From a virus (lineage: Duplodnaviria; Heunggongvirae; Uroviricota; Caudoviricetes), in the IMG/VR virus record IMGVR_UViG_2526164650_000011: DNA of 10,342 bases; one strand, 5' to 3'. Positions 7,444 through 7,890 of the stretch are shown piece by piece. The position numbers and the translations under genes are program-made. The notes below the pieces were generated by a model that ran no database searches, had not been told where the DNA came from, and was given only the letters and a program-made list of their open reading frames with translations. The first letter of the stretch is position 1; each line of letters opens with the position of its first letter.

Positions 7444-7834
7444 ATACATATCTGGATTATCACCTGTTACGGTAAAAAGTGATTGCTTACTGTTTTTGTT
7501 AATGGCATTGCAGCAGCCGGATAATGTCAGTGCCGGCTGACGGTGTGCTGGTGGCGGGTGTGGTGGTTGTTGCTTTCCCGTTGCTGAAAAAGAAAACGCC
7601 AGACTGTTAGCCGGGTATCAGTTAGCGGGAGAAATTTTTAAATACTTCACAATTCAGGCGGTTGACTGTTGTCTGGTTTGCGGGGAGTTTGTTAAAAGAA
7701 ACTGGCATGGTGAATCCCCCTGTGCGGAGGGGCAATCAGCGAGTAGGTATATGGGATAATCGCGGATTCAGGTGCTGGTACTGAATTCACCGGGAGGCAC
7801 CCGGCACCATGGAATGGCACATAGCGCCACTCTC

Positions 7835-7866
7835 CAGCCCCTCTCCGGAGGGGCTGTTTATATTGA
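7835..7866 (+). terminator. Strong intrinsic terminator: perfect 9-bp stem CAGCCCCTC-tccg-GAGGGGCTG followed by TTTATATTGATTTT
   Basis: Read directly. It terminates plus-strand transcription through the GC-rich segment at 7500-7835. Confidence 0.7.
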
Positions 7867-7890
7867 TTTTGTCAGATGTGAGTAAACTCC

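Follow-up and report, generated by a model that had tools for sequence, protein, structure and literature searches.

The window analysed here, a stretch of 10,342 nucleotides, belongs to a lambdoid prophage in decay that has been broken up by elements of the IS3 family. There are three integrase-core (rve) ORFs of the IS3 family (372-1190, 2230-3069 and 9186-10004), and the outer two are located within inverted copies (305-1240 and 9136-10071) that are 99% complementary. The plus strand carries genes for DUF968 (4338-5387) and RusA (5400-5756), followed by the gene for the Q antiterminator (5771-6592; Pfam PF03589, E 6.9e-55), which marks the start of the late operon. Two plus-strand tRNA genes come next, a tRNA(CAT) at 6737-6812 that is annotated as tRNA-Ile in E. 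coli 042 and a tRNA-Arg(TCT) at 6903-6979. They are followed by a conserved phage gene on the same strand (7117-7443) that matches phrog_2873 over the full length of the profile (E 2.2e-69) and for which no Pfam family was found. Farther downstream lie the anti-adaptor gene iraM on the minus strand (7891-8226), identified by its match to phrog_4407 (E 3e-73) and by the RefSeq annotation of the 042 locus, then plus-strand fragments of DUF1737 type (about 8470-8830) and a plus-strand holin gene (8877-9161) that is cut by an IS element. The corresponding locus of E. coli 042 is 99.3% identical.

Between the phrog_2873 gene and iraM there is a GC-rich stretch amid AT-rich cargo, and this contrast, first remarked upon in a reading of the sequence alone, is genuine (GC fraction 0.51 at 7501-7800 versus 0.31-0.41 in the flanks). 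The sequence-only reading treated positions 7500-7870 as a single hairpin-dense segment. This description does not hold, because the hairpin at 7514-7539 sits within a protein-coding remnant and the match to a small-RNA family covers only 7676-7865. Thus, the stretch comprises two adjacent and separately catalogued units rather than one. The best explanation, and in our judgement a highly probable one, is that an STnc100-family sRNA gene (7676-7865) stands next to a DUF3927 gene of which only the 3′ half is left, in a decayed state (7479-7610), with both on the plus strand. Both features are already known, and there is nothing novel in kind at 7500-7870.

The sRNA was recognized when the entire window was searched with the covariance models of Rfam. 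The model for STnc100 (RF02076) matches positions 7676-7865 of the plus strand over its full length (model positions 1-206 of 206) with 124.2 bits, where the gathering score is 47, and with an E-value of 1.5e-27, which places the 3′ part of the stretch beyond chance. This is the sole strong match in the scan other than those to tRNAs. A candidate sRNA ending at a terminator had been proposed for the entire segment, and the proposal is borne out for the 3′ part (about 7704-7863), while positions 7500-7610 fall outside the RNA. The copy in the window scores 124 bits compared with 208 bits for the copy in an Stx2 phage, because its P3 helix is shorter and its tail differs. A minus-strand ORF of 42 amino acids (7692-7820) that overlaps the sRNA was also considered as a gene, and is treated as spurious since it has no family match.

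The structured core of the RNA is a multi-helix junction on the plus strand (7706-7811). Its long-range helix P1, formed by CATGGTG (7706-7712) and CACCATG (7805-7811), encloses four hairpins. These are P2 (7715-7720 with 7726-7732), the short and variable P3 (7739-7742 with 7760-7763), P4 (7764-7771 with 7781-7788) and P5 (7790-7794 with 7800-7804). Every listed pair of P1, P2, P4, P5 and the terminator is a standard pair in the window sequence, and the consensus helices are recovered by both the minimum-free-energy and the centroid folds of the window RNA. All of the inverted repeats that had been picked out in the sequence-only reading are present, with several coordinates shifted by one or two nucleotides. 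Specifically, the ATTCAG/CTGAAT repeat is part of P4 and is located at 7766-7771 and 7781-7786 rather than at 7764-7784, and the CCCC/GGGG repeat is P2, in which CCCCC and GGGG occupy approximately 7716-7720 and 7729-7732. The element GGTGAAT is found at 7709-7715 as originally placed, and its complement ATTCACC is at 7785-7791 instead of 7784-7790. The pairing that was proposed between these last two elements competes with P1, P4 and P5, and is essentially without covariation support.

Structure prediction and covariation analysis across homologous loci had been put forward as a check on the hairpins, and among 21 distinct STnc100 copies the fold is indeed retained with compensatory changes. 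These copies derive from Stx1, Stx2a, Stx2c and Stx2d phages, from non-Stx lambdoid phages and from bacteria (E. ruysiae, another Escherichia species, Shigella flexneri and two Enterobacter species). Across the 34 proposed pairs, 93.1% of cells contain standard pairs, and shifting the 3′ partner by one to three columns lowers this value to 40-51%. There are 15 pairs, terminator pairs included, in which both sides have changed, and none of 500 shuffles matches this number. Support from covariation is carried by P1 and by P4, wherein seven of eight pairs show compensatory changes. The essentially invariant P5 and most of P1, which is likewise invariant, are uninformative in this respect.

The hairpins might instead be chance features of a locally GC-rich stretch, and the fold of the single sequence is unexceptional enough to invite the thought (z = -1.19, with 25 of 200 shuffles folding equally well or better). 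The case for the structure therefore rests on the covariance model and on covariation. Given the E-value of the former, and a fold that shows covariation and is conserved across genera, chance is refuted as an explanation and we consider it vanishingly improbable.

The RNA ends with an intrinsic terminator on the plus strand (7835-7865), which has a G+C-rich stem of 9 bp, a loop of 4 nt and a T-rich tail. The arms of the stem, CAGCCCCTC and GAGGGGCTG, span 7835-7856 and are followed by TTTATATTGA. A perfect 9-bp terminator had been claimed at 7835-7866, and both the stem and the T-rich run are as described. The terminator coincides with the end of the RF02076 model, and five of the eight pairs of its helix show changes on both sides across the copies.

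Between the core and the terminator there is a linker (7812-7834, plus strand) that varies in a modular fashion from copy to copy. The Stx1 phage, TL-2011a and PhiR12_1 have linkers that are 96% identical to the one in the window and cores that share 58-74% identity with the window core. Conversely, the core in the window is 100% identical to the core of Shigella phage 75/02 Stx, the linker of which is only 22% identical. The STnc100 copy in the window is thus a mosaic of core and linker modules. Such modular exchange of linkers fits an arrangement wherein the linker provides target specificity, and the core along with the terminator and its U-tail provide shared functions.

The predicted RNA would begin at its 5′ end with the conserved core of several helices, continue through a short linker that is variable and single-stranded, and close with the terminator hairpin and its U-tail. 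If it behaves like its characterised relatives, EcOnc27/sRNA103 of EHEC and PasD1 and PasD2 of EPEC, it is most likely an Hfq-bound, trans-acting, base-pairing regulator that operates in the lysogen. From this anatomy and from the relatives, we infer that the linker is most likely the target-pairing (seed) region and that this exchangeable module would supply target specificity. The core might contribute stability or another shared function, and the terminator and U-tail may serve in stability and Hfq binding.

The strong conservation of the core raises another possibility, which is that the junction binds a protein or a ligand, as a sponge, decoy or switch, or acts in cis as an element of the late transcript, such that pairing by the tail is secondary. 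From Escherichia to Enterobacter, P1 is nearly invariant, P5 and its loop are almost so, and the tails are swapped freely. This is more sequence conservation than is usual for an sRNA that acts by base pairing alone. The copies often occur in tandem, and the GGUGA sequence has two alternative conserved partners (7787-7791 or 7805-7808). However, relatives of this RNA have been isolated together with Hfq and in RNA-RNA chimeras that include mRNAs (PMC4104026, PMC8550237), there is no match to an Rfam riboswitch or ribozyme family in the region, and no ligand or protein partner is known. Moreover, the GGUGA/UCACC complementarity is conserved in sequence, but the alternative helix is almost without covariation support. 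On balance, we regard this explanation as rather unlikely.

A more specific version, to which we would assign a still slimmer chance, is that P1, P2, P5 and their loops constitute a dedicated protein- or ligand-binding module, perhaps one that switches the partner of GGUGA between 7787-7791 and 7805-7808. If this were true, lambdoid phages would be retaining a binding core where the cargo slot ends and recombining it with different tails, and STnc100 would be a family of modular structured RNAs whose partner is yet to be discovered.

All 12 of the phage loci examined, and E. coli 042 as well, have STnc100 in one and the same slot, wherein Q is followed by tRNA genes, by stx or other cargo, by STnc100, by iraM or an anti-sRNA or neither, and then by esterase and lysis genes. 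The cargo can be stx1, stx2 or other genes. The copy in the window conforms to this pattern, being located on the strand of the late operon between Q/PR′ and the lysis genes. It is convergent with iraM.

A candidate promoter becomes apparent when 19 copies are anchored on P1. There is a TTGNNN-N17/18-TANNNN motif whose second hexamer ends 5-8 nt before P1 in 17 of the 19 copies, and shuffled upstream sequences exhibit the motif in a mean of 1.2 copies and in six at most. The spacers usually end in TGT, and the motif is kept where the upstream sequence is otherwise unrelated. The Enterobacter copies carry a near-consensus version, such as TTGACT-N18-TAGATT. In the window, the putative sigma-70-type promoter for the sRNA is located on the plus strand at 7669-7698, with TTGTCT (7669-7674) as its -35 element and TAAAAG (7693-7698), which is without the usual final T, as its -10 element. 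The spacer of 18 nt ends in TGT. A generic promoter scan reported nothing upstream of the sRNA, and the motif was seen only after the 19 copies had been anchored. The TTGACT sequence at 7662-7667, which the sequence-only reading had judged to be without a good -10 element, is present and fits that judgement; the conserved promoter would use the adjacent TTGTCT instead.

Judging from these elements, transcription would proceed from the gene’s own sigma-70-type promoter and begin at about 7704-7706, some 1-2 nt before P1. It is predicted to stop at the intrinsic terminator (7835-7856 and the U-tract), which would yield an RNA of approximately 160 nt.

One alternative is that the structured RNA forms the 3′ end of an mRNA for the upstream cargo, and thus is a 3′-UTR element or a processing product rather than the product of an independent gene. 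The cargo in question would be phrog_2873 and DUF3927 in the window, and stx in Stx phages. Perhaps, in the lysogen, the terminator ends transcription of the moron, and during lytic growth the Q-modified polymerase reads through it. STnc100 is always found directly 3′ of cargo on the same strand, some 75-95 nt after stx2B or DUF3927 (PMC12370729), and morons are usually built of a promoter, a gene and a terminator (PMC4104026). The imperfect -10 element of the E. coli copies also accords with this alternative, but the TTG-N17/18-TA motif holds a fixed distance from P1 despite unrelated upstream sequence and is near consensus in the tandem copies of Enterobacter. In addition, tandem copies each have their own motif and terminator. 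We consider the 3′-end reading to be unlikely, and it and an independent sRNA gene are not mutually exclusive.

The other unit of the stretch is a remnant of a gene for DUF3927, a small TciB-like membrane protein. Full-length members of this family have 54-57 amino acids and two hydrophobic helices (for example, MTVKMRLAVVALLLFLVVMVVMVDFSSRIMSVLADGVLVAGVVVVAFPLLKKKTPDC). There are seven loci at which terB (PF05099) and DUF3927 form a two-gene operon, with DUF3927 second and an overlap of 4 nt, and the P1 stem of STnc100 starts 95 nt downstream of the DUF3927 stop codon. Compared with a full-length locus, the window has GTT in place of the GTG start codon, and deletions of 11, 4 and 14 nt (29 nt in total) have removed the first helix and shifted the frame. 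The terB gene is missing, and the phrog_2873 gene is found in its place. A frame of 43 codons is nevertheless annotated by RefSeq in E. coli 042, and its product scores 95.8 bits on Pfam PF13064 and also matches phrog_1470, which is labelled ‘TciB-like’. In the window, this frame is interrupted by a change of GAA to TAA at 7500 (stop codon at 7500-7502) that is absent from E. coli 042. Thus, the window lacks an intact DUF3927 gene that is full length, encodes two helices and is translationally coupled to terB.

What is left of the gene includes a plus-strand ORF of 28 amino acids (7524-7610) whose translation, MSVPADGVLVAGVVVVAFPLLKKKTPDC, is exactly that given in the sequence-only reading. 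The description of a hydrophobic helix with a basic tail, preceded by a weak Shine-Dalgarno sequence (GGA, 4 nt upstream), is likewise accurate. This helix and tail are the second transmembrane helix and the KKK tail of DUF3927, read from an internal Met codon. The peptide scores 53.5 bits on PF13064 (cut-off 25) but covers model positions 26-53 of 53 only. With this match, the notion that the ORF is what a G/T-rich repeat yields by chance can be set aside. The peptide is identical to a protein (P0048) that is listed at NCBI as ‘DUF3927 family protein [Shigella]’ and is found on at least 1000 contigs.

The remnant also contains the 7-bp inverted repeat CAGCCGG/CCGGCTG, which had been placed at 7512-7538 and is in fact located on the plus strand at 7514-7539 (arms at 7514-7520 and 7533-7539). 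The repeat is perfect only by virtue of a lineage-specific change of T to C at 7534, and the second arm reads CTGGCTG both in E. coli 042 and in full-length genes. Near-identical alleles of the 28-residue peptide differ by L/P, S/T, G/C and V/I, which suggests relaxed constraint. The ORF is a gene fragment and probably not a functional gene.

An alternative is that the ORF gives rise to a hydrophobic micropeptide with a function of its own, perhaps as a type I toxin, which its single hydrophobic helix and basic tail had brought to mind. In thousands of contigs from E. coli and Shigella, the ORF is uninterrupted and bears a protein annotation, so some residual translation may take place. PHROGs labels the parent family as TciB-like, ‘inhibition of cell division or resistance to colicin’. 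However, this is an internal fragment of a two-helix protein of 54-57 amino acids that has lost its native start, its first helix and the coupled terB gene. The frameshifting deletions and the nonsense codon located upstream, the weak ribosome-binding site and the amino acid changes among near-identical alleles all speak against a functional peptide.

Furthermore, a toxin of this type would call for an antisense or complementary RNA, and none was found. An Rfam search revealed no RNA family on the opposite strand. When STnc100 as a whole, or its linker alone, was paired with the ORF mRNA, the duplex energy was no better than that of shuffles (fraction at least as good 0.59 and 0.73, respectively). 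The idea that the peptide and the RNA form a fixed module was rejected as well, because a tblastn search of all STnc100 loci showed that the ORF is limited to the terB-DUF3927 lineage and its remnants and is absent from the Stx-phage and Enterobacter loci. A functional micropeptide is therefore, in our estimation, a very unlikely explanation, and a decayed DUF3927 gene remains the preferred one.

The element is widespread. About half of the complete E. coli genomes (2718 of 5426) contain a match to a 551-nt query, the median number of matching places in a genome being two, and together with the published family this indicates an element that is already known and common. The window thus contains an ordinary copy of a prophage sRNA that has long been catalogued as a family, and little about the window itself is new. 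Its value is mainly in annotation. In RefSeq records, spurious or pseudo-CDS features overlie the sRNA, the 28-residue fragment is named as a protein by NCBI, and the conserved phrog_2873 gene is left unannotated in E. coli 042. For the family at large, members of which adjoin stx genes, the mosaic of a conserved core with a swapped tail and the conserved promoter should be useful entry points for study.

Among known systems, type I toxin-antitoxin loci such as hok/sok resemble the DUF3927 remnant in that a prophage encodes a short, hydrophobic peptide that ends in a basic tail. They differ in that no overlapping or complementary antitoxin RNA, whether antisense in cis or complementary in trans, was found for the ORF in the window, which is a fragment of a larger gene. 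A hok/sok locus is present in the related E. coli 042 prophage. The proper comparison for the remnant is with DUF3927 itself (PF13064; phrog_1470). Over the 28-32 C-terminal residues, the remnant agrees completely or almost completely with full-length members, whereas the window lacks the first transmembrane helix, the native start and terB, and has the nonsense codon at 7500.

For the sRNA, an informative comparison is with the paired sRNAs of EHEC. Tree et al. described a “moron” site 3′ of PR′ that encodes convergent pairs of sRNAs crosslinked to Hfq, namely EcOnc27/AsxR and EcOnc06/AgvB (PMC4104026, PMC7873438), and at least eight Sakai prophages encode such pairs (PMC4104026). In Rfam searches, AsxR or AgvB abuts STnc100 on the minus strand in VT2-Sakai and in Shigella phage 75/02, and one or the other is found next to STnc100 in loci L007, L009 and L022. 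The window shares the plus-strand member of these pairs and its location, but it does not have the minus-strand anti-sRNA. There is no match to AsxR or AgvB in the window even at E <= 5, and a permissive Rfam search of 6980-8900 gave neither such a partner nor a second, degenerate STnc100 copy. The motif for the anti-sRNA terminator of other phages (AAAAAAGCCCGCGC...) is replaced in the window by the 3′ end of iraM.

Expression of other family members is documented in EDL933, where 10 of the 11 STnc100 copies have substantial numbers of reads and a Northern blot has confirmed one copy (PMC5331693). Hfq-bound RNAs of the STnc100 type from the moron slot, EcOnc27/sRNA103 and PasD, are described in EHEC and EPEC, with Northern verification. 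We make no claim of one-to-one correspondence between the window copy and the verified one, STnc100_4; a nearby copy in a newer EDL933 assembly has a similar core and a different tail.

PasD1 and PasD2 of EPEC are reported to be structurally homologous to STnc100, depend on Hfq for their stability and have targets identified by RIL-seq (PMC8550237; bioRxiv 10.64898/2026.05.13.724894). Going by the published description of the PasD RNAs in strain E2348/69, they and the RNA in the window are alike in being encoded by a prophage in the vicinity of Q. They differ in that PasD loci are defined by linkage to both Q and LpxR. The window has Q, and a general look at its ORFs, not specific to LpxR, identified no LpxR gene among those examined.

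Another close point of reference is EcOnc27 (sRNA103) of the Stx2 phage Sp5/933W. This RNA was recovered by Hfq-CRAC (PMC4104026), and part of its span, 3′ of stx2B, is shared with the STnc100 annotation (PMC12711010, PMC7873438). The effects on fimZ and espA that have been reported for STnc100-type RNAs are overexpression phenotypes (PMC7873438). Compared with the STnc100 copy of Stx2a phages, the P3 helix in the window is shorter, and the core and tail are 62% and 29% identical. The surroundings also differ from those in the Stx2 phage, as the sRNA in the window follows a DUF3927 remnant rather than stx2B and faces iraM rather than the convergent anti-sRNA AsxR. The two nevertheless have in common the P1-P5 junction, the terminator, the plus-strand position in the moron slot and the promoter geometry.

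The copy of the prophage sRNA family STnc100 in the window (7676-7865, plus strand) carries a GGUGA element at 7709-7713 that has two conserved complementary partners, namely UCACC on the 5' side of P5 (7787-7791) and CACC on the 3' side of P5 (7805-7808). The pairing with UCACC is incompatible with P5 and with the base of P4. Over 21 STnc100 copies, 89% of cells are paired in this alternative helix, and covariation is almost nil. A functional alternative conformer formed through GGUGA and UCACC is possible but unsupported. Elsewhere in the copy, the first base 3' of P1 (7812) is G, as it is in CP178302.1; E. 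coli 042 and the other copies with the same linker have C at the equivalent position.

The sequence TCACAATTCAG is located at 7641-7651, about 20 nucleotides upstream of the inferred -35 element of STnc100. It is kept in most copies from Escherichia and phages, including those copies located after stx2B wherein the flank is otherwise different. This element could be a regulator site or an UP-like element.

Two database records place protein-coding genes on the minus strand directly over STnc100. These are a pseudo 'hypothetical protein' CDS in E. coli 042 (6296-6421 of comparison locus L001, equivalent to 7695-7820 of the window) and 'ORF b70' in the Stx1 phage (2517-2840 of L004). Both look like mis-annotations. 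The window's equivalent of the 042 pseudo CDS, a 42-amino acid minus-strand ORF, yielded no family match. Another record, NZ_JPLE01000080.1 (888 nucleotides), is labelled Xanthomonas pisi and contains an STnc100 identical to that of VT2-Sakai, adjoined by a match to the anti-sRNA AsxR that has the same score as in VT2-Sakai (88.1 bits). This record most likely reflects contamination of the X. pisi assembly by E. coli or Stx-phage DNA.

Upstream of the sRNA, the slot held by terB in intact terB-DUF3927 loci is taken by a plus-strand ORF of 108 codons (7117-7443) whose match to phrog_2873, a family of unknown function, spans the entire profile (E 2.2e-69). This ORF looks like a gene missed in the annotation of E. 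coli 042, because the 98% identical stretch of that RefSeq locus carries no annotation.

Inverted copies of an IS3-family element (305-1240 and 9136-10071), which are 99% complementary and carry 272-amino acid rve ORFs, enclose 7.9 kb of the late region of the prophage, and the holin gene (8877-9161) is cut short by the right-hand copy. At 2230-3069 lies one more rve transposase ORF of the IS3 family, which derives from a different IS. The tRNA with anticodon CAT (6737-6812) is called tRNA-Met by ARAGORN, whereas the RefSeq annotations of E. coli 042 and VT2-Sakai give tRNA-Ile. This tRNA is probably a lysidine-modified phage tRNA of the ileZ type and, as in Stx phages, has tRNA-Arg(UCU) as its partner.

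Tandem STnc100 pairs are found in phage vB_EcoS-733R4 (1061-1254 and 1530-1718), E. albertii (4825-5013 and 5289-5482) and two Enterobacter species (3418-3623 and 3646-3847 in L014; 6775-6982 and 7009-7212 in L020). Every tandem copy has a terminator, and both copies in 733R4 and three of the four in Enterobacter have a promoter-like motif of their own. On its left side, the single window copy is flanked by sequence like that beside the first copy in 733R4 (78% identity); its core, tail and right flank correspond to those of the second (97.8% identity).

In other phages (L002-L005), AAAAAAGCCCGCGC...GGCGG lies directly 3' of the STnc100 terminator and is itself the terminator for a convergent sRNA encoded on the minus strand. 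At 7866-7925, the window instead carries an 11-bp inverted repeat, CCTTATGGACT/AGTCCATAAGG (7889-7921), which overlaps the iraM stop codon (7891-7893).
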